The notes under the pieces were generated by a model. The model saw only the letters and a list, made by a program, of their open reading frames with translations, was not told where the DNA came from and ran no database searches. Shown here in pieces: positions 3,323 to 22,963 of a DNA stretch of 64,000 bases; position 1 is the first letter of the stretch; each line of letters opens with the position of its first letter. The position numbers were made by a program, and so were the translations under genes. The DNA is taken from contig JACORW010000059.1 in the NCBI GenBank assembly GCA_016179185.1, positions 1,400-65,399 of the forward strand, in the 5' to 3' direction. This DNA comes from Gammaproteobacteria bacterium. Lineage in GTDB: Bacteria; Pseudomonadota; Gammaproteobacteria; Eutrophobiales; Eutrophobiaceae.

Positions 3323-3462
3323 GTCTTTGGAGGTCGGTTTATTCCGGCGATCACCCTGGTGACGAAGCCGGATTACGGTATCATGCGCGTCCACGGCCCA
3401 GCCCGGAAACCGTCGCTGGCCTGGACCCGTTCCCACTCCTGGCATGATTCAAGACTGGAGAA

Positions 3463-15429: not shown

Positions 15430-15696
15430 CTATTTCTCCAGCCGCCGCAGTTTCAGCTCGATCTCTTCAAGTTCCGTGAGTGCCTGCTTCAGCAGGGCGT
15501 CCAGCACTTCGGCGTTCTGCAATTGCACGGCCTGTTCCTCGAAATCCCGATCAAGACCGCTGCGGAAGTCGCGCCGGATGGCATCCACCCGCTCGCGGAG
15601 TTCGGTCTGTTTCTGCCGCAGTGCCTGCTCTGATTCCGTGTTGTTTTTCACGTTTGCCGGTTCCGCATGTTTCACTACATGTGATCCAGCATACAT
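15430..15696 (-). CDS. hypothetical coiled-coil protein resembling the N-terminal half of DksA/TraR regulators (no zinc finger)
   Basis: 88-aa ORF. DFEEQAVQLQNAEVLDALLKQALTELEEIELKLRRLE aligns by eye with the DksA/TraR coiled-coil region, but the ORF stops where the C4 zinc finger would begin. Confidence 0.4.
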   Translation of the reverse strand: MYAGSHVVKHAEPANVKNNTESEQALRQKQTELRERVDAIRRDFRSGLDRDFEEQAVQLQNAEVLDALLKQALTELEEIELKLRRLEK

Positions 15697-15721: not shown

Positions 15722-15735
15722 TTGATCGGGGTCAA
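15722..15735. promoter_or_regulatory. FNR/Anr-type box (9/10)
   Basis: TTGATcgggGTCAA. The centre is ~77 nt upstream of the phosphoribosyltransferase ATG. Confidence 0.55.
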
Positions 15736-15805
15736 CGAAAGGACGCCCGCCCAATGGCACAAATTGCAGCCGTGACAGGCGGTCAACGAGGCATCAATCG
15801 AATCC

Positions 15806-16480
15806 ATGAAATACAACGTCCGGCATAGCCGCACCTTTCCTGATCGCCGAACCGCGGGACGCGACCTGGCGCGGGCGCTGAACAGGTATTCAGGCCGCGG
15901 CGACGTTCTGGTGCTGGCGTTGCCCCGCGGCGGTGTGCCGGTCGCCGATGAGATCGCGCGTTTCCTCGGCGCGCCCCTGGATATTCTGATCGTGCGCAAG
16001 CTCGGCGTCCCCGGGCAGCCGGAATTGGCGCTCGGTGCCATTGCCTCCGGCGGGGCGCGGGCCGTCAATGATGAGATTGTTGAGGCGCTGGGCATTGACC
16101 CCGCGATAGTTGATGCCATCGCGGACAGGGAGAGAATGGAAATACTCCGGCGCGAGCAGGCCTATCGCGGCGACCGCCCGCCGATCCAGGTCGCCGGAAA
16201 GGTTGTTATCGTCGTGGACGACGGCATGGCGACGGGAGCGACGATGCGCGCCGGCGTGCGGGCGCTGCGGGCGCTGCAACCGGCCCGCCTGGTCGTGGCG
16301 GTGCCCCATGCGCCAACCGATACCTGCGCGTCACTGTCCGCCGAAACAGATGAACTGGTTTGTCTGGAGATGCCCGAACCGTATGTGGCGGTGGGCCGCT
16401 GGTATCAGGACTTCCCGCAGCTGACGGACGCCGAGGTCAGGGAAATCCTCGGACACGCCGCCGCCGGCCGCAGTGCGTGA
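15806..16480 (+). CDS. phosphoribosyltransferase-family protein (stress-cluster type)
   Basis: 224 aa. VLALPRGGVPVA and VVIVVDDGMATGATM PRPP-binding motif. Confidence 0.85.
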   Translation: MKYNVRHSRTFPDRRTAGRDLARALNRYSGRGDVLVLALPRGGVPVADEIARFLGAPLDILIVRKLGVPGQPELALGAIASGGARAVNDEIVEALGIDPAIVDAIADRERMEILRREQAYRGDRPPIQVAGKVVIVVDDGMATGATMRAGVRALRALQPARLVVAVPHAPTDTCASLSAETDELVCLEMPEPYVAVGRWYQDFPQLTDAEVREILGHAAAGRSA

Positions 16481-16818
16481 AGCTTTACCTGGCCGCGGCG
16501 GCGCCGCACGTAAGTCTTCAGTCTGCGCTGCGCCGCGTCGAACACACCCCGAATCGCCAGGTAAACGTCCTCATGGGAACGATGTTCGCCCGGTTCCCGG
16601 GAAATAGTGAACTCCCCGTCGGGGACCGTGAATCGCAGGCGTGCGTGGTAGATTCGACCCCCGTCCTGGTGTTGGCACGAGGCTTCCACCAGGACCTGGA
16701 TCCCGATGACATCACGGCTGAATCGGTTCAGCCGGCCGGCATGTTCGCGAATGCAGTCCTCCAGTGACTGCGAATGCGGAAAACCTCTAAACGTGACGTT
16801 GATCGGAATGATGGACAA
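16405..16818 (-). CDS. HPF/RaiA-like ribosome-associated protein (short form)
   Basis: ORF 16405..16953 trimmed to an in-frame TTG at 16818, 10 nt downstream of GGAGA. MSIIPINVTFRGFPHSQSLEDCIREHAGRLNRF...HEDVYLAIRGVFDAAQRRLK follows the S30EA/HPF pattern. The 3' end overlaps the convergent PRT gene by 76 nt. Confidence 0.65.
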   Translation of the reverse strand: MSIIPINVTFRGFPHSQSLEDCIREHAGRLNRFSRDVIGIQVLVEASCQHQDGGRIYHARLRFTVPDGEFTISREPGEHRSHEDVYLAIRGVFDAAQRRLKTYVRRRRGQVKLHALRPAAACPRISLTSASVSCGKS

Positions 16819-16873
16819 GGGTCGGATGTCTCCGTTGACCTCGGAGCCCCTGCGTGCGCGTGCGCGGCGCAGT

Positions 16874-17101
16874 TCAGGCGCGTCCCAGCAGACGGTCGAT
16901 TTCCCGTTCCGCGGCGAACCAGTGCTCCGCGGAGTCGCCGGTGAACCCGGCATTCAAAGCGTGGAAATACGCAGCCTCCCGGATCATTGCGAAACGCACT
17001 TCCCGGCTCTCCCCGGCAACCGGGCTTTTTGACTTTCCGGACGGGGCCCTGGGCACGGCCAGCGCCTTGGGTTTTGCCTTCGACAGACTCTTCATTGGCA
17101 T
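16874..17101 (-). CDS. DUF2934-like small protein
   Basis: ORF 16874..17248 trimmed to ATG 17101, 5 nt after AGGAGG. C-terminal IREAAYFHALNAGFTGDSAEHWFAAEREI resembles the DUF2934 motif. Confidence 0.55.
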   Translation of the reverse strand: MPMKSLSKAKPKALAVPRAPSGKSKSPVAGESREVRFAMIREAAYFHALNAGFTGDSAEHWFAAEREIDRLLGRA

Positions 17102-17247
17102 CGAAACCTCCTGCATTGCGCGATTGCGGTTCCTGGGCGCGAGCAACGCAACAAAATCGTACGCCTTCCAAGACCGGGAACCTTGATCCATGTCAGCCAT
17201 TGCGCGTACCGGCACCCGGACAACCGATCGATCCGGACCATCGGGCA

Positions 17248-17261
17248 TTGATCTCCATCAA
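17248..17261. promoter_or_regulatory. FNR/Anr-type box (perfect)
   Basis: TTGATctccATCAA, just upstream of the dienelactone hydrolase-family gene and in the divergent spacer with the DUF2934/HPF-like genes. Confidence 0.65.
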
Positions 17262-17296
17262 ACCGTCCCGGGCGCATCCGCGTAGATTTTCCTTCC

Positions 17297-17992
17297 GTGC
17301 AGACATACCCGTCAGCAATTGAGTTCATGGACATCGTCCTTTCCGCCGATGGCGTGGAACTGGACGCTTCTCTGGCATTGCCCGAGAGACAGTGCGGCCT
17401 CGTTCTGTTCATCCACGGCAGCGGCAGCAGCCGCTTCAGTCCCCGCAACCGGATCGTCGCGGACGCGCTCAACCGGCGCGGGCTCGCCACCCTGCTGCTG
17501 GACCTGCTTACCATTCCCGAGCACGAACAGGATGAAATTACCGGCGAGCTGCGCTTCGAAATCGAGCTGCTGAGCCGGCGGGCAATGCAATGCATTGAAC
17601 GGGTTGGAGAACGGGGGTCGCTGGCACACCTTCCGCTCGGCCTGTTCGGCGCCAGTACCGGGGCCGCGGCGGCGCTGAATGCGGCGGCGGAGCGCCCCGA
17701 TAAGGTTGCCGCGATCGTATGCCGCGGCGGGCGTCCCGACCTCGCACTGCCGATGCTGCCGGACGTGCAGGCGCCGACGCTGTTCATCGTGGGCGCGCTG
17801 GATCACACCGTGCTGGCGCTGAACCGTGAGGCCGCCGCTGCCCTCAGGGCAACCCATCGCATCGCCGTGGTGCCGGGTGCCTCGCACCTGTTCGAAGAAC
17901 CGGGGAAGCTGGACATTGTGGCGGCGCTGGCGCGCGATTGGTTTCTGCACCACCTTGCCGGCGGCGCAACGGCGGCGCAGGCGAACGCGTGA
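17297..17992 (+). CDS. dienelactone hydrolase-family alpha/beta hydrolase (stress-cluster type)
   Basis: 231 aa. LFIHGSGSSRFSPRN and GASTGAAAAL nucleophile elbow. Track start is GTG 17297. ATG 17327 is an alternative. Confidence 0.85.
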   Translation: MQTYPSAIEFMDIVLSADGVELDASLALPERQCGLVLFIHGSGSSRFSPRNRIVADALNRRGLATLLLDLLTIPEHEQDEITGELRFEIELLSRRAMQCIERVGERGSLAHLPLGLFGASTGAAAALNAAAERPDKVAAIVCRGGRPDLALPMLPDVQAPTLFIVGALDHTVLALNREAAAALRATHRIAVVPGASHLFEEPGKLDIVAALARDWFLHHLAGGATAAQANA

Positions 17993-18035
17993 ATCCCGGC
18001 GCGCCGCCGCCCGTGCCCCGGCTGCCGGCGCTGCG

Positions 18036-18581
18036 CTACGCCGCCTTCACCTCGATCTTCTTTTCCTCTTTCTGCGCCCCCGCCGTCTTCGGCATCACCA
18101 GTTTCAATACGCCGCTGGAAAACGTGGCCGCTATCCTGTCGGTATCCACGGTTTCCGGCACCTCAAATGACCGCTCGAAGGAACCGTAGCGCCGCTCGGA
18201 GAGGTAGTAATCCTTTTTCTTCTCCTCGGTCTCTTCCTTTTTCTCGCCCTTGATGCACAGCCTGTTGTTGGCGAGGGTCACTTCGATGTCCTTTTCCTGC
18301 ATGCCGGGCAGCTCGGCGGTGATCTCGAACGCCTTTTCCTTTTCGGCGATGTCAATCGCCGGGGCGATGCCCCACGAAGAAGCACGGCGCCAGGCGGGCT
18401 CAAGGTCGAACCATGATCGGCGGAACGGCAGGTGCCAGTTGGCGCCAAAGTCATCGAACAACCGATCCACTTCGCGGCGCAGGCTTTCGAACGGATGAAA
18501 AGTGCCGGCGGCCGGAACTTTCTCCGCAGGCAGCTGCACCTTCTTTACCGGGACAACTGTTGCTGTGTGTGCCATGGCCAT
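18036..18581 (-). CDS. Hsp20/alpha-crystallin family small heat-shock protein
   Basis: ORF 18036..18899 trimmed to ATG 18581, preceded by AGGAGGAAA. The alpha-crystallin domain reads AIDIAEKEKAFEITAELPGMQEKDIEVTL...GVLKLVMPK. Confidence 0.9.
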   Translation of the reverse strand: MAMAHTATVVPVKKVQLPAEKVPAAGTFHPFESLRREVDRLFDDFGANWHLPFRRSWFDLEPAWRRASSWGIAPAIDIAEKEKAFEITAELPGMQEKDIEVTLANNRLCIKGEKKEETEEKKKDYYLSERRYGSFERSFEVPETVDTDRIAATFSSGVLKLVMPKTAGAQKEEKKIEVKAA

Positions 18582-18729
18582 TTCCTCCTGTCTCACTCTT
18601 GCTTCGCAGACAATTGACAGGCTGGCGAAAAACCCGTTTTTCTCCGGCCTGTCCGGCGTCTGAAAAAGTCCGCCACGAACTACTTCAGCACTCCATGAAC
18701 AAAGTATTGCGCTTTCTCCGGAGGCCACC

Positions 18730-18743
18730 TTGATTCGGATCAA
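18730..18743. promoter_or_regulatory. FNR/Anr-type box (perfect)
   Basis: TTGATtcggATCAA, ~155 nt upstream of the hsp20 ATG at 18581. Confidence 0.6.
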
Positions 18744-18902
18744 GCGCGGTAATGCCCTGACGCGGTCAACTGCCCCGCGCCGCGGCACCTGCGTCTCCAG
18801 CCCCTCGGCCAATGGGGCGTCGACCCGCAGCAGAGCGCCGGCCGGAGGACCGCCGTTCCCGGCATGATGCACACGGCCATGTCGGGATCCCGGCGTCATT
18901 CA

Positions 18903-18916
18903 TTGATCCGTATCAG
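18903..18916. promoter_or_regulatory. FNR/Anr-type box (9/10)
   Basis: TTGATccgtATCAG. The centre is ~82 nt upstream of the glgC ATG. Confidence 0.5.
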
Positions 18917-18991
18917 ATTTGCCGCCCCATTCCGCTCCTAGTATCTGCCGGAGGCAGAGGCAGAATTTCTAACGAGTCAGGACGGTCATAC

Positions 18992-20302
18992 ATGGGGATC
19001 ATTTCCCAGCGGCGCGCGGTCGCTGCATCCCTCCGGGATACGCTCGCGGTCATCATGGCGGGCGGCCGCGGACTGCGCCTCGGCCCGTTGACCGCGAATC
19101 ACAGCAAACCGGCGCTCCCGTTCGGCGGCAAGTTCCGCATCATTGACTTCACGCTGTCCAATTGTGTCAATTCCGGGCTGTACAAGATCTGCATCCTGAC
19201 GCAATACCGTGCCCATTCACTGATGCGGCACGTGGAACTGGGCTGGTCCTTCTCCCGGCACGAATTCGGCGAGTTCGTGGAGCTGCTGCCGGCCCAGGAG
19301 CGAACCGAGGCCTCGTCCTGGTACCAGGGCACCGCCGACGCCGTTTACCAGAACCTGGACATCATCCTCGGCCACCAGCCCGACTATGTCCTGATCCTCG
19401 CCGGCGACCACATCTACAAGATGGACTACGGCATGATGCTGGAAACGCACCTGGCCAGCAGGGCCGACGTGACCGTCGGCTGCGTCGAGGTCCCGGTGAA
19501 TGAAGCACACCAGTTCGGCATCATGGTTGTGGACGAGCAGAACTGCATCAAGGGTTTCCAGGAAAAACCGGATCATCCCATGCCCACTCCGGGCCGCCCC
19601 GGTATCGCGCTGGCGTCCATGGGGATCTATCTGTTTTCAACGCCGCTGCTGGACGGCGCGCTGGAGCGTGACGCCATGGTGGCGTCCTCAAGCCACGATT
19701 TCGGCCGGGACATCATCCCGTCGTTGCTGCGCAGCCACCGGCTCATTGCCTGCCCGTTCAACAATCTGCAATCCGGCGAGCAGAGTTACTGGCGCGATGT
19801 CGGTACCGTGGACGCCTATTGGGAGGCGAACCTGGAACTCATCGGCGTGACGCCGCCGTTGAATCTTTACGACCAGGACTGGCCCATTCGCACCGCGCCC
19901 AATCAATATCCTCCCGCCAAGTTCGTATTCGACGATGACGACCGGCGCGGCACGGCGGTGGATTCCATGGTCTCCGCGGGCTGCATCATCTCCGGCTCCA
20001 GCGTGAGACACTCGCTGCTGTCCGACAATGTGCGCGTGCACTCGTTCTCGCACATCGAGGATTCGGTGCTGCTGCCCGGCGCCGAAGTGGGGCGGCATTG
20101 CCGCATCGCCCGAACCATCATTGACAGCGGCTGCCGCATCCCGGAGCGAACGATCATCGGCGAGGACCTGGCGGAGGATCGCAAGCGCCTGTTTGTCACG
20201 CCACGCGGCGTCAGGCTGGTGTGCCCAGGCATGCTGCCCCTGCCGGTGGGCGATGCGACAACTGCCGGCGCACCGGCCGATCCCGCCGTCACGCGATGCT
20301 GA
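18992..20302 (+). CDS. glgC: glucose-1-phosphate adenylyltransferase
   Basis: ORF 18812..20302 trimmed to ATG 18992. VIMAGGRGLRLGPLTANHSKPALPFGGKFRIIDFTLSNCVNSG is the canonical GlgC N-terminus. Confidence 0.93.
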   Translation: MGIISQRRAVAASLRDTLAVIMAGGRGLRLGPLTANHSKPALPFGGKFRIIDFTLSNCVNSGLYKICILTQYRAHSLMRHVELGWSFSRHEFGEFVELLPAQERTEASSWYQGTADAVYQNLDIILGHQPDYVLILAGDHIYKMDYGMMLETHLASRADVTVGCVEVPVNEAHQFGIMVVDEQNCIKGFQEKPDHPMPTPGRPGIALASMGIYLFSTPLLDGALERDAMVASSSHDFGRDIIPSLLRSHRLIACPFNNLQSGEQSYWRDVGTVDAYWEANLELIGVTPPLNLYDQDWPIRTAPNQYPPAKFVFDDDDRRGTAVDSMVSAGCIISGSSVRHSLLSDNVRVHSFSHIEDSVLLPGAEVGRHCRIARTIIDSGCRIPERTIIGEDLAEDRKRLFVTPRGVRLVCPGMLPLPVGDATTAGAPADPAVTRC

Positions 20303-20391
20303 TTGATTGACGCAAAACCGGGTTTTGCATCATCCGGTTCACGCCGGCCCGGCCCGGTGGGCGCAACAGATGATCGAGCGCGCCCGGATCA

Positions 20392-20405
20392 TTGATTTGC
20401 GTCAA
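20392..20405. promoter_or_regulatory. FNR/Anr-type box (9/10) with no annotated gene downstream
   Basis: TTGATttgcGTCAA in the 535-nt gap after glgC. Confidence 0.45.
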
Positions 20406-20478
20406 GCGGCGCGGATGCCCATGGAGTAATTTTTCATCCGGGAAATTCCGCTGACACAATGAATACGGGTACTTGAGC

Positions 20479-20691
20479 ATGAGAACGAGCAACCTGTCGG
20501 CCACTCTGGCACCGGTATGCTGGATGCCGCCACGCCCGCTGCCGGCGACCTCACCGGCTCGGGTGCGTATCGAACAGAGCCAGCGCGGGGAAGAGGCCTG
20601 CTTCATGACCGAGAAACGGCTTACCTGCGGCGATTCGGCCTGTGAGCTGCGCGTGCGCTGCCGGCGACTGGTGGCTGTCTGGAAGCGCTGA
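20479..20691 (+). CDS. possible small protein (70 aa), no recognisable family
   Basis: ATG-started part of ORF 20473..20691. About three quarters of its third codon positions are G/C by my count. It lies downstream of the 20392 FNR-like box and is followed by a second 30-codon ORF (20696-20788) and a hairpin. Confidence 0.25.
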   Translation: MRTSNLSATLAPVCWMPPRPLPATSPARVRIEQSQRGEEACFMTEKRLTCGDSACELRVRCRRLVAVWKR

Positions 20692-20786
20692 ACTGATGGC
20701 AGTTCCGGCTCGACAGACCATCACGGAGCGATCGGCGGGCGGTACGACCGACATCGAGGCCACGCTCGGCGACGCAGCCGCCGCGT

Positions 20787-20824
20787 AACAGGCTGATTCA
20801 AAAGCCGGTTTTGAATCAACCTGT
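20787..20824. terminator. bidirectional hairpin
   Basis: AACAGGCTGATTCAAAAgccggTTTTGAATCAACCTGT, between the small ORFs and the stop of the convergent 574-aa gene. Related to the hairpins at 5294-5325 and 5408-5439. Confidence 0.55.
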
Positions 20825-20837
20825 CAGCGACCGTTGA

Positions 20838-22562
20838 TCATGTTGCCGTCGCGCCGGCCAGACGCGCCCGTAGCCCGCCCAGCGCCGCCGCAAACGGCGG
20901 CGCTTCGCAGCCGGTGTCCACTGTCAACGTGCTGCGCAGTTCATCCATGCCCAGCGCCTCGAAACGGCCGGACTGAAATGCGAGCACGTCCGGCGTGGCT
21001 TCTGAGGCATCTTCCCCCTGCCGCCACCGGCCCGAAAGCCGCTCCAGAAGCGTTGCCATGGGCGCGGTGCAGAACAGGATCGTGAAAGCTGTCCCGCGGC
21101 GGAACGCCAGTTCACGAAACGCCGCGCGATCGCCACCGCGCACGAAGGTGGCATCCACGATCACCGGATATCCGGCAGTCAGTATTTCATTGGCCAGCTT
21201 CAGCAGGCGCCGATACGTGCGCCGGTCCGCGGCGGCCGAATAAATCCCCGCACCAACACCGGAGCCGGTGCGTGCCAACGGCGCAAGCGCGGCGAGCCGC
21301 TTGCGCTCCACGTCGGAGCGCAAGCAAATTGCCTGCAAATGTTCCACAACGGCCAGTGCCAGGGTGGATTTGCCCGAACCCGAAAGCCCCGACGTAATCG
21401 CCAGCCATGCGGGTGCCGGTTGCGCAAGCCGTTCCGCGAGAGTGAGGTATTCCCGAAACCGCTCCGTGGCCGACGCCTGCCCGGCGGCCGGCACGCCCGA
21501 TTGCCGCCTGCGCAGGCACGCGACCTTGGCCCGCACCATCGCCCGATAGGCCGCATAAAACCGCAACAGCACCAGACCCTCGTAGTCGCCGGTCAACTCC
21601 AGCCAGGTGTTCAGAAACCGGTACGCCAGCGGCGGTTGGCCGTAATCAACCAGATCCATGAACAGGAACGCGACGTCACTGATGACGTCTATCCAGCGCA
21701 ACCCGGCATTGAACTCGATGGCGTCGAAGATCACCGGTTCACCATCAATCAGTGCCACATTACCAAGGTGCAGGTCGCCATGGCACTCGCGCACCCGCCC
21801 GGAACGGCGGCGCTGCGCGATGGGTTCCGCCAGCCGCCGGTATTCCGCATCGGTCCAGTGCGCCAGTGCCGCCAGGCGCGCGCGTTCCGGTTCGACCCCT
21901 TCCAGTGCCGCGATCTGGGCGAAATTTTCCCGTGCGGACGCCAGTACCAGCGCACCGGTGCCGAACCGGGAATCCGGATCGGCGCGCGGCGCCTGCCCGT
22001 GCAGCCGGGCCAGCGAATGGGCCACAGACTCGACGTGGGCGGCGGTCAGCTCGCCGCGTTCCGCCGCCAGGTCGCACAGCGCGTCCCGGCGGAACGCCCG
22101 CATCCGCACCGCATATTCGATGGGTTCGCCCGGCCCGCCGAGTGCCGGCTGATCCGGCGTGCCGGTGACGGCCACCACGTCCAGGTAGAGCGCCGGTGCC
22201 GTGCGCGCATTGAGCCGCAACTCCTCGTCGCAGAACTGGCGCCGCGCGGCAAGCGTCGTGAAGTCCAGAAAGCCGAAATTGACCGGCTTCTTGATCTTGT
22301 AGGCGAATTCGCCGGCGAGCAGCACGTAAGAGATGTGTGTTTCGATCAGTTCGACGTTCGCCGCGGCATGCGGATAGCAGGCCGGATCGCGCAGCGCCAG
22401 CACCAGGCGCCGGGTCGCGCGCTCCGCGCTTCCGTCTGCCGCCGACCCGAAGACCCCCGCTATCGTGGCGCCCCGGCCACGAACGCCGACGTCCGCCCCA
22501 TAGTGAGCCTGTTCCCCGCGCGGTTCCTGCGGCGCGTGGATTTCACCAATTGACCTGATCAT
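20838..22562 (-). CDS. bifunctional phosphotransferase-family (APH-like) / P-loop ATPase protein
   Basis: 574 aa. N-terminal IETHISYVLLAGEFAYKIKKPVNFGFLDF and HGDLHLGNV kinase-like motifs. C-terminal Walker [12 protein letters not shown]. The true start may be internal. Confidence 0.85.
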   Translation of the reverse strand: MIRSIGEIHAPQEPRGEQAHYGADVGVRGRGATIAGVFGSAADGSAERATRRLVLALRDPACYPHAAANVELIETHISYVLLAGEFAYKIKKPVNFGFLDFTTLAARRQFCDEELRLNARTAPALYLDVVAVTGTPDQPALGGPGEPIEYAVRMRAFRRDALCDLAAERGELTAAHVESVAHSLARLHGQAPRADPDSRFGTGALVLASARENFAQIAALEGVEPERARLAALAHWTDAEYRRLAEPIAQRRRSGRVRECHGDLHLGNVALIDGEPVIFDAIEFNAGLRWIDVISDVAFLFMDLVDYGQPPLAYRFLNTWLELTGDYEGLVLLRFYAAYRAMVRAKVACLRRRQSGVPAAGQASATERFREYLTLAERLAQPAPAWLAITSGLSGSGKSTLALAVVEHLQAICLRSDVERKRLAALAPLARTGSGVGAGIYSAAADRRTYRRLLKLANEILTAGYPVIVDATFVRGGDRAAFRELAFRRGTAFTILFCTAPMATLLERLSGRWRQGEDASEATPDVLAFQSGRFEALGMDELRSTLTVDTGCEAPPFAAALGGLRARLAGATAT

Positions 22563-22648
22563 GTGGCCAGCCTAGTACCCGGCCACCGGAGCATGTTGAT
22601 CTGGCGCAATTGCGCCTTTCTCCAGGGCGCGCGGGCGCGTACGCCTGT

Positions 22649-22662
22649 TTGATGGAGATCAA
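22649..22662. promoter_or_regulatory. FNR/Anr-type box (perfect) in a divergent spacer
   Basis: TTGATggagATCAA. The centre is ~113 nt from the HIG1-like ATG and ~93 nt from the start of the 574-aa gene. Confidence 0.6.
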
Positions 22663-22768: not shown

Positions 22769-22963
22769 ATGGCACTGCTCACGCTCCTCATCTCGATCGG
22801 TGTGGTTACCACGGCTCTGGCTCTGGTGCTGGGCGTCGCATCGATGGCGCACGGCGGCGAATATGACGACAAACATTCCGTGCAACTGATGTTCGCCCGC
22901 GTGGCGAGTCAGGGGGTCACCATCGTCCTGCTGCTGCTCGCGCTGTACATCGCCGCTACCTGA
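22769..22963 (+). CDS. twin-TM small protein, HIG1 (hypoxia-induced protein) domain-like
   Basis: ORF 22703..22963 trimmed to ATG 22769 after GGAGG. Two hydrophobic helices flank ...QLMFARVASQG.... Confidence 0.65.
   Translation: MALLTLLISIGVVTTALALVLGVASMAHGGEYDDKHSVQLMFARVASQGVTIVLLLLALYIAAT

Follow-up and report, generated by a model that had tools for sequence, protein, structure and literature searches.

A compact cluster of FNR-type boxes with putative low-oxygen persistence genes in an uncultured groundwater gammaproteobacterium

Genes and boxes of the cluster

The window, a stretch of 64,000 nucleotides (nt) of contig JACORW010000059.1 (assembly GCA_016179185.1, a gammaproteobacterium of the Eutrophobiaceae), contains a cluster of stress-related genes whose intergenic spacers carry palindromes of the FNR/Anr type, hereafter termed FNR boxes. 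The assembly comprises 2.58 Mb in 115 contigs, with a G+C content of 63% and an estimated completeness of 86%. The genome analysed here is labelled G000 and its relatives within the family G002 and so forth; C numbers denote contigs, the window corresponding to C35:1400-65399, and L numbers denote the loci examined. Boxes were searched with the pattern TTGAT-N4-ATCAA allowing at most one mismatch, and the relaxed consensus used genome-wide was TTGAY-N4-RTCAA.

The first-pass annotation, made from the DNA letters alone, had assigned the genes of the cluster to families, and Pfam confirmed all of these identifications: Pribosyltran, DLH/abhydrolase, DUF2934, Ribosomal_S30AE, HSP20, GlgC-type NTP_transferase, APH plus AAA_33, and HIG_1_N. 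What it had described as an orphan transcript is actually a conserved gene for a protein of 70 amino acids (aa), termed orf70, whose homologues have open frames. The genes and boxes are arranged along the window as follows.

15430..15696, minus strand: DksA-like_N protein of 88 aa (Pfam PF21173, 30.3 bits), divergent from the phosphoribosyltransferase gene
15722..15735: FNR box 1, TTGATcgggGTCAA, 9/10 match, between the DksA-like gene (minus strand) and the phosphoribosyltransferase gene (plus strand); centre 77.5 nt from the ATG of the latter
15806..16480, plus strand: type I phosphoribosyltransferase-family protein (PRTase) of the TT1426 type (Pfam PF00156; PDB 1wd5, Thermus "hypothetical protein TT1426", E=1e-38)
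16405..16818, minus strand: ribosome hibernation factor of the HPF/RaiA type (Ribosomal_S30AE), 137 aa, with a TTG start (Pfam PF02482, 48 bits; PDB HPF 9t0z, E=2e-17)
16874..17101, minus strand: DUF2934 small protein (Pfam PF11154), first gene of the DUF2934-HPF unit
17183..17196: weak FNR box, TTGATccatGTCAG, 8/10 match; centre 88.5 nt from the DUF2934 ATG; TACGAT 21 nt after the box on the minus strand
17248..17261: FNR box 2, perfect; centre 72.5 nt from the ATG of the dienelactone hydrolase gene; TAGATT 21 nt downstream
17327..17992, plus strand: dienelactone-hydrolase-type alpha/beta hydrolase (DLH; Pfam PF01738, PF12146)
18036..18575, minus strand: Hsp20/alpha-crystallin (Pfam PF00011, 90.6 bits)
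18730..18743: FNR box 3, perfect, for Hsp20 (minus strand); centre 161.5 nt from the ATG; TACTTT at 23 nt and AATACT at 21 nt
18903..18916: FNR box 4, TTGATccgtATCAG, 9/10 match; centre 73.5 nt from the glgC ATG; TAGTAT 22 nt downstream
18983..20302, plus strand: GlgC, glucose-1-phosphate adenylyltransferase of glycogen synthesis (Pfam PF00483, PF24894, PF25247)
20392..20405: FNR box 5, TTGATttgcGTCAA, 9/10 match; centre 80.5 nt from the orf70 ATG; TAATTT 21 nt downstream
20479..20691, plus strand: orf70, 70 aa with four cysteines; C-terminal motif CF.T..RL.C....C.WR..CRRL.A.W.R
20838..22562, minus strand: 574-aa fusion protein with APH (kinase-like) and AAA_33 (P-loop kinase) domains (Pfam PF01636, PF13671)
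22596..22609: weak box, TTGATctggCGCAA, 8/10 match; 40 nt from the APH/AAA_33 ATG; role uncertain
22649..22662: FNR box 6, perfect, between the divergent HIG1 and APH/AAA_33 genes, whose ATGs are 113.5 and 93.5 nt away, respectively
22769..22963, plus strand: HIG1-type small protein with twin transmembrane helices (Pfam PF04588)

Pattern search placed the six main boxes, starting at 15722, 17248, 18730, 18903, 20392 and 22649, exactly where the first-pass annotation had them, with the same match quality (three perfect, three at 9/10) and with half-sites that all read TTGA. All six are intergenic, as had been stated; the distances from box centre to start codon, given earlier as roughly 40-155 nt, were measured as 32.5-161.5 nt, and four of the centre-to-ATG distances are grouped at 72.5-80.5 nt. 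In total, the window has eight matches with at most one mismatch, compared to 1.06 expected, a number reached by none of 100 dinucleotide-preserving shuffles. The other two matches, at 1329 and 34143, lie well within long open reading frames (ORFs), which leaves no further comparable intergenic box in the window, in agreement with the earlier inspection by eye. Across the 2.58 Mb of the genome there are 80 such matches, seven of them perfect, and three of these seven fall in the cluster. With a span of 6,954 nt, the cluster is the densest in the genome, holding six boxes compared to three in the runner-up window; the Poisson probability of six or more boxes is 1.2e-7 with 0.22 expected, or about 4e-5 after correction for about 371 windows. 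The spacer DNA that holds all six boxes totals only 1,269 nt, spread over 7.5 kb. Two additional boxes with two mismatches (17183-17196 and 22596-22609) also lie in the cluster spacers, against 0.39 expected, an excess that is only suggestive of real sites.

In a class II FNR promoter the box is centred at -41.5, which places the start of the -10 hexamer about 22 nt past the end of the box. Five of the main boxes and the weak box at 17183, corresponding to six transcription units, are followed at 21-23 nt by TAnnnT hexamers, among them TAGTGT, 22 nt downstream of box 6 on the HIG1 side. No canonical sigma-70 promoter of the TTGACA/TATAAT type was found in any cluster spacer, and no -35 element. 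The missing sigma-70 promoters and the spacing of the hexamers are consistent with activator-dependent class II promoters, the lack of sigma-70 promoters counting as weak evidence. The DUF2934-HPF operon, on the minus strand, is the probable target of the weak box at 17183. For Hsp20, the placement of the hexamer implies a leader of about 120 nt, in which no RNA element such as a ROSE thermometer was detected (no Rfam match with E<0.9).

The HPF-type protein of the cluster is a second, divergent paralogue, scoring 48 bits compared to 100 bits for the canonical HPF encoded at G000:C54. Its ORF and that of the PRTase converge and, taking 16405 as the HPF stop, share 76 nt at their 3' ends (16405-16480); G005 (L102/L256) has this convergent layout as well. 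The DksA-like protein corresponds to the N-terminal coiled-coil of DksA alone and is devoid of the zinc finger; its homologues in the same-genus genomes G002 and G003, 67-75% identical, occupy the same divergent position by the PRTase gene. The PRTase matched no NCBIfam equivalog, orf70 matched no Pfam or NCBIfam family, and a PDB sequence search with APH/AAA_33 gave no match. HIG1 scored 42.4 bits on NCBIfam NF033233, under the cut-off of 49.

By G+C content there is no genomic-island signature, the cluster having values of 0.62-0.65, the same as its surroundings. The boxes were also compared as possible copies of a repeat or miniature inverted-repeat transposable element (MITE), an origin that was excluded because their 30-nt flanks are no more alike (mean identity 0.31) than those of random pairs (0.30).

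Distribution of the boxes in the genome and among relatives

The boxes are not equally frequent throughout the genome and inside genes. The relaxed consensus occurs 25 times compared to 2.5 expected from base composition, and is biased towards spacers: DNA called as coding with confidence covers 70% of the genome, and 20 of the 25 sites fall outside it (binomial p=5e-7). Manual re-annotation left about 2-3 of them truly intragenic and about 22 in spacers. One site, C28:10764-10777, was first masked by a spurious reverse-frame ORF of 1,015 aa and was reassigned by inspection to the spacer between ccoI/fixI and an ompW-like gene, which is followed by a Yip1-like gene and ccoN. The genes ompW, ccoN (cbb3 oxidase) and ccoI are textbook targets of FNR. 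Boxes also precede the genes for a universal stress protein (USP; C46:1966-2472), polyphosphate kinase 1 (C41:18450-20595) and a 1,161-aa type II enzyme of the DMSO-reductase family with a Tat signal, which is Nar/Nxr-like (C60:22131-25676); these three would add functions in energy and phosphate storage to the putative regulon. Further boxed genes encode two hemerythrin-like proteins, PdxH, a cytochrome c beside fnr and an AraC-type regulator.

Elsewhere on contig C60, at 3400-3429, two perfect boxes, TTGATTTTAATCAA and TTGATCAAGATCAA, are separated by 16 bp centre to centre and stand just 5' of the gene for a PAS-BTAD/SARP-looking regulator, an unusual tandem arrangement.

Within the family, other genera included, boxes recur in front of the orthologues of PRTase, Hsp20, APH/AAA_33, orf70, DUF2934 and HIG1, and partly in front of glgC, against a background rate of one box per 32 kb. 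The PRTase orthologues of G005, G011 and G059 have an upstream box with at most one mismatch, whereas none was found upstream of the distant PRTase paralogues (33-47% identity). In G002 and G003, TTGAT-N4-CGCAA occupies the aligned position in the spacer between the DksA-like and PRTase genes, and the weak box at 22596 shares this variant. In addition, DUF2934 in these two genomes is preceded by a perfect box at about 120 nt. In G005, TTGACccagATCAA precedes the Hsp20 orthologue (63% identity) by about 77 nt, a perfect box the APH/AAA_33 orthologue by about 100 nt, and a 1-mismatch box the HIG1 orthologue by about 80 nt. Homologues of orf70 with 48-53% identity and open frames were found in five other genera of the family (L248-L252), all with the four cysteines invariant. 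The gene is present in six of the 121 family genomes and has an upstream FNR box in four of the six copies, those of the relatives being in G011 (perfect), G005 and G059.

The distribution of the genes in the family is patchy: PRTase was found in 12 and DLH in 4 of the 121 genomes, and APH/AAA_33 in 8 of 31 relatives, being absent from the three genomes of the same genus. FNR is encoded in all 12 PRTase-bearing genomes, compared to 71 of the 121 overall. The syntenic cluster of G005 has five boxes in 11 kb, and an fnr gene (C55:51985-52686) sits between its PRTase/HPF pair and APH/AAA_33. A larger island in the sister species G003 (C77:1-15850, L100) contains three boxes and encodes Hsp20, phosphoenolpyruvate (PEP) synthase/PPDK, cytochrome c', an FNR paralogue, an acyl-CoA synthetase, acetoin/pyruvate-dehydrogenase-like (acoABC-like) E1alpha, E1beta and E2 subunits, DUF2934, PRTase and the DksA-like protein; compared to the window cluster, it lacks DLH, APH/AAA_33 and orf70. 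Its FNR paralogue (C77:3622-4302) has the four cysteines and is 46% identical to the FNR encoded on contig C19 of the window genome. Paralogues of fnr also adjoin orf70 in G011 (C26) and a PRTase paralogue in G059 (C133).

These distributions bear on the notion that the boxes are chance palindromes or repeat remnants with no regulatory role. In its favour, the palindrome is a short one, and neither of the 2-mismatch boxes is significant individually; nevertheless, the shuffles (0/100), the Poisson probability of about 1e-7, the spacer bias, the conservation before orthologues and the unrelated flanks effectively refute it, and its probability is close to nil.

Outside the family, the Burkholderia/Paraburkholderia loci share both genes and boxes with the window cluster. 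All eight DLH-PRTase loci examined in these genera have one or two boxes about 95-200 nt upstream of DLH. In all, loci of these genera carry two to five boxes; a divergent APH/AAA_33 gene is present in three of the eight, and a nearby full-length Hsp20 match with its own box in two. Together with the published low-oxygen-activated (lxa) locus of Burkholderia cenocepacia (PMC3721108), they bear out the likeness to low-oxygen or dormancy regulons of other proteobacteria that the first-pass annotation had proposed. APH/AAA_33 has at least 468 relatives across Proteobacteria, and boxes and neighbours were counted in the best 80 loci, where boxes before APH/AAA_33 are mostly missing (26 boxes in 1.33 Mb). 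As APH/AAA_33 is mostly unboxed elsewhere, the FNR wiring would be lineage-specific and no property of the genes themselves.

Candidate regulators and the proposed activation by FNR

The genome encodes regulators of the CRP/FNR family, as the first-pass reading of the boxes presupposed. Three proteins combine the cNMP_binding and HTH_Crp_2 domains, encoded on contigs C19, C43 and C39. The C19 protein (G000:C19:~20500-21261) is an FNR, scoring 273.6 bits on NCBIfam NF008365 (Fnr) compared to a cut-off of 228, and is about 50% identical to FNR/Anr of Pseudoalteromonas and Pseudomonas. Its N-terminus carries CGNCNLSELC (CX2CX5C), its central cysteine is in SYCSIP, and its recognition helix reads ETVSR (E--SR). 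In Escherichia coli FNR, E209, S212 and R213 read TTGAT, and the ligands of the oxygen-labile [4Fe-4S] cluster are C20, C23, C29 and C122. Having the same residues, the C19 protein appears equipped to bind the boxes upon oxygen loss. The C43 protein is CRP (297.7 bits compared to a cut-off of 266), with a REMVGR helix. An assignment of the boxes as CRP sites was rejected, all half-sites being TTGA and not GTGA and the helix of this CRP being RE--GR.

The C39 protein (G000:C39:3108-3845) has a SETLSR (E--SR) helix but only an N-terminal CX2C, scores 38 bits for Fnr and reaches no curated cut-off. Three boxes (3876, perfect, 4007 and 4165) are located in its own upstream spacer of 970 nt. The regulator gene faces a cluster (C39:3108-9342) labelled by eye as encoding an ethylbenzene dehydrogenase haem-subunit-like protein, a multihaem c-type cytochrome and a 774-aa porin, which looks like an extracellular electron transfer module of the MtoA/MtoB type and is possibly under FNR-type control.

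We consider it likely, from the sequence evidence, that the window cluster is a compact FNR-activated low-oxygen (hypoxia-persistence) island, subject to class II activation by [4Fe-4S]-FNR. We infer that the boxes are occupied by the C19 FNR and not by the C39 regulator, with activation as the outcome and oxygen limitation as the signal. As oxygen falls, the C19 FNR would assemble a [4Fe-4S] cluster on its four cysteines and dimerise, and its E--SR helix would then bind the intergenic TTGAT-N4-ATCAA palindromes. A start site would follow about 41.5 bp after each box, in a promoter with a -10-like hexamer and without a -35 element, leading to class II activation. Six or seven transcription units would be switched on together, for PRTase, DUF2934 with the second HPF, DLH, Hsp20, GlgC, the four-cysteine 70-aa protein and HIG1; the kinase-like APH/AAA_33 protein would probably be switched on too. 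Such a response would prepare the cell for oxygen loss by hibernating its ribosomes, supplying a chaperone and glycogen, and aiding the respiratory chain.

Several observations weigh against this activation by FNR. On the PRTase side of box 1 the candidate -10 hexamers are weak only (CAAATT or ACAAAT), and on the APH/AAA_33 side of box 6 no -10-like hexamer was found. The glgC box recurs with one mismatch in G032 and with two in G011, and is missing at this stringency from the other relatives checked; most APH/AAA_33 loci of Thiobacillus, Pseudomonas, Methylotuvimicrobium and Ectothiorhodospira likewise have no box. The split into coding and non-coding DNA came from a crude gene caller based on ORFs and GC3. 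A search for expression data returned only four DNA runs of groundwater metagenomes and no RNA runs with this sequence. Furthermore, the centre of box 1 is 32.5 nt from the ATG of the DksA-like gene, and the second E--SR regulator, C39, could bind the same boxes.

The position of box 1, which would overlap the promoter or start of the DksA-like gene, and the 40-nt distance between the weak box at 22596 and the APH/AAA_33 ATG would fit an arrangement in which some or all boxes are repressor/operator sites, or class I or tandem sites, and the cluster is shut down when FNR is active. This arrangement seems highly improbable: at five boxes a -10-like hexamer follows with exactly the class II spacing and a -35 element is lacking, and HPF, Hsp20, glycogen synthesis and HIG1 match the sets that are induced in published low-oxygen regulons (PMC3721108; PMC5309233).

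The identity of the regulator leaves somewhat more room, although we regard it as unlikely that the boxes are read mainly by C39, or by both regulators in a cascade, in which case the signal would be other than oxygen itself, such as NO, the redox state or the supply of electron donor. A cascade has a precedent in Anr and Dnr of Pseudomonas. C39 shares the E--SR helix of C19, yet it has the CX2C only and falls far below the NCBIfam cut-offs. The three boxes in its own upstream spacer, by the multihaem-cytochrome/porin cluster, would suit a role for it, and the variant TTGAT-N4-GTCAA, which accounts for about half of the sites of the genome, could mean that there are two specificities. Several Anr-related regulators also act in the low-oxygen response of B. 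cenocepacia (PMC3721108). In contrast, the regulators linked to the equivalent clusters of relatives are canonical four-cysteine FNR paralogues and not of the C39 type, and the classical FNR targets at the ccoI/ompW-ccoN spacer bear the same motif; sites of C19 and C39 are inseparable by sequence alone.

Comparison with known low-oxygen regulons

The lxa locus of B. cenocepacia J2315 contains 50 low-oxygen-activated genes and 17 intergenic motifs that share TGA-N6-TCA with Anr/Fnr boxes (PMC3721108). It encodes an alpha-crystallin induced 240-fold, USPs, enzymes of polyhydroxyalkanoate (PHA) synthesis and Anr-related regulators; upon its deletion anoxic survival is lost, and an overlap with the mycobacterial DosR regulon was noted (PMC3721108). 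The window cluster resembles lxa in being a contiguous stress/persistence cluster with many intergenic Anr/Fnr-like palindromes, an Hsp20 and a gene for a storage polymer. They also have Anr-related regulators in common, although in the window genome these are encoded outside the cluster (fnr on C19). Despite this similar architecture, the window cluster is much smaller, with about 10 genes in 7.5 kb compared to 50 genes, and is devoid of a USP, class II ribonucleotide reductase, PHA genes, alcohol dehydrogenases and an in-cluster regulator; the boxed USP of this genome is on C46, outside the cluster. The storage polymer is glycogen (glgC) in the window cluster and PHA in lxa. In addition, the window cluster has an HPF paralogue, HIG1, DUF2934 and the four-cysteine small protein. 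The hosts differ as well, lxa being from Burkholderia and the window from an uncultured groundwater relative of Candidatus Tenderia within the Gammaproteobacteria. Low-oxygen induction was demonstrated for lxa, whereas for the window cluster we infer it. Overall, this kind of island is already known from Burkholderia, and the window cluster is a small and differently composed example. It represents a compact, statistically solid putative FNR regulon island in an uncultured lineage of groundwater chemolithotrophs, the relatives of Candidatus Tenderia.

The Anr/FNR regulons of Pseudomonas aeruginosa and E. coli share with the window genome the TTGAT-N4-ATCAA box, a four-cysteine regulator with the E--SR helix, a spacing that fits -41.5, and boxed genes for cbb3 oxidase, OmpW and universal stress proteins. 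Unlike these regulons, the window cluster consists of persistence genes and not of genes for anaerobic respiration or fermentation. The Pseudomonas APH/AAA_33 loci examined have no box, unlike the window cluster.

The gene kinds also overlap with those of the DosR/DevR regulon of Mycobacterium tuberculosis, compared here by description only: a hibernation factor, an Hsp20 (Rv2031c/HspX) and a PRTase. The regulon includes Rv0079/RafH, a ribosome-associated factor in hypoxia, Rv0571c, an uncharacterised putative phosphoribosyltransferase, and Rv2004c (PMC5309233). The title of a cited paper links Rv2004c to streptomycin resistance. A literature search for Rv0571c as a dienelactone hydrolase found no paper in the library searched. 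We take Rv0571c to be a putative PRTase-DLH fusion and Rv2004c a putative APH/P-loop protein. The wiring is different, as DosR/DevR is a two-component response regulator acting at GGGAC-N4-GTCCC boxes, whereas the window cluster has FNR-type boxes. A scan for this Dev box at non-mycobacterial actinobacterial PRTase loci gave nothing convincing, the GC-rich DNA making the scan uninformative. The window cluster would tie four widespread proteins, namely the TT1426-type PRTase, DLH, APH/AAA_33 and the new four-cysteine protein, to low-oxygen control in a third lineage.

A broader and more doubtful proposal, which we put forward tentatively, is that the cluster represents, in Proteobacteria, a "hypoxic shutdown" module of ancient origin that moves horizontally and has been re-wired to the oxygen sensor of each host. 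Its core would be PRTase plus DLH, APH/AAA_33, a dedicated HPF paralogue and Hsp20, acting on ribosomes or the nucleotide pool, and its wiring would be FNR in the window genome and Burkholderia but DosR in mycobacteria. The four-cysteine 70-aa protein would be a new member of such a module, so far confined to the family.

Two associations give clues to function. In 18 of the 80 best proteobacterial loci, mostly of Thiobacillus and Hydrogenophilales (L024, L027, L035, L038, L040, L041, L043, L048, L052, L057, L060, L063, L065, L066, L070, L077, L085 and L098), a short HPF-like gene lies about 20-70 nt upstream of APH/AAA_33 on the same strand. This suggests that the hibernation factor and the kinase-like protein form a functional pair, and the co-operonic order from HPF to APH/AAA_33 hints that the hibernation factor may be the target or the partner of the kinase-like protein. 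In three Actinobacteria and two uncultured bacteria (L211, L225, L240, L213 and L226), one ORF of about 430-455 aa encodes both PRTase and DLH, a fusion which argues that the two proteins act together; in the window, two genes encode them, and each has an FNR box of its own.

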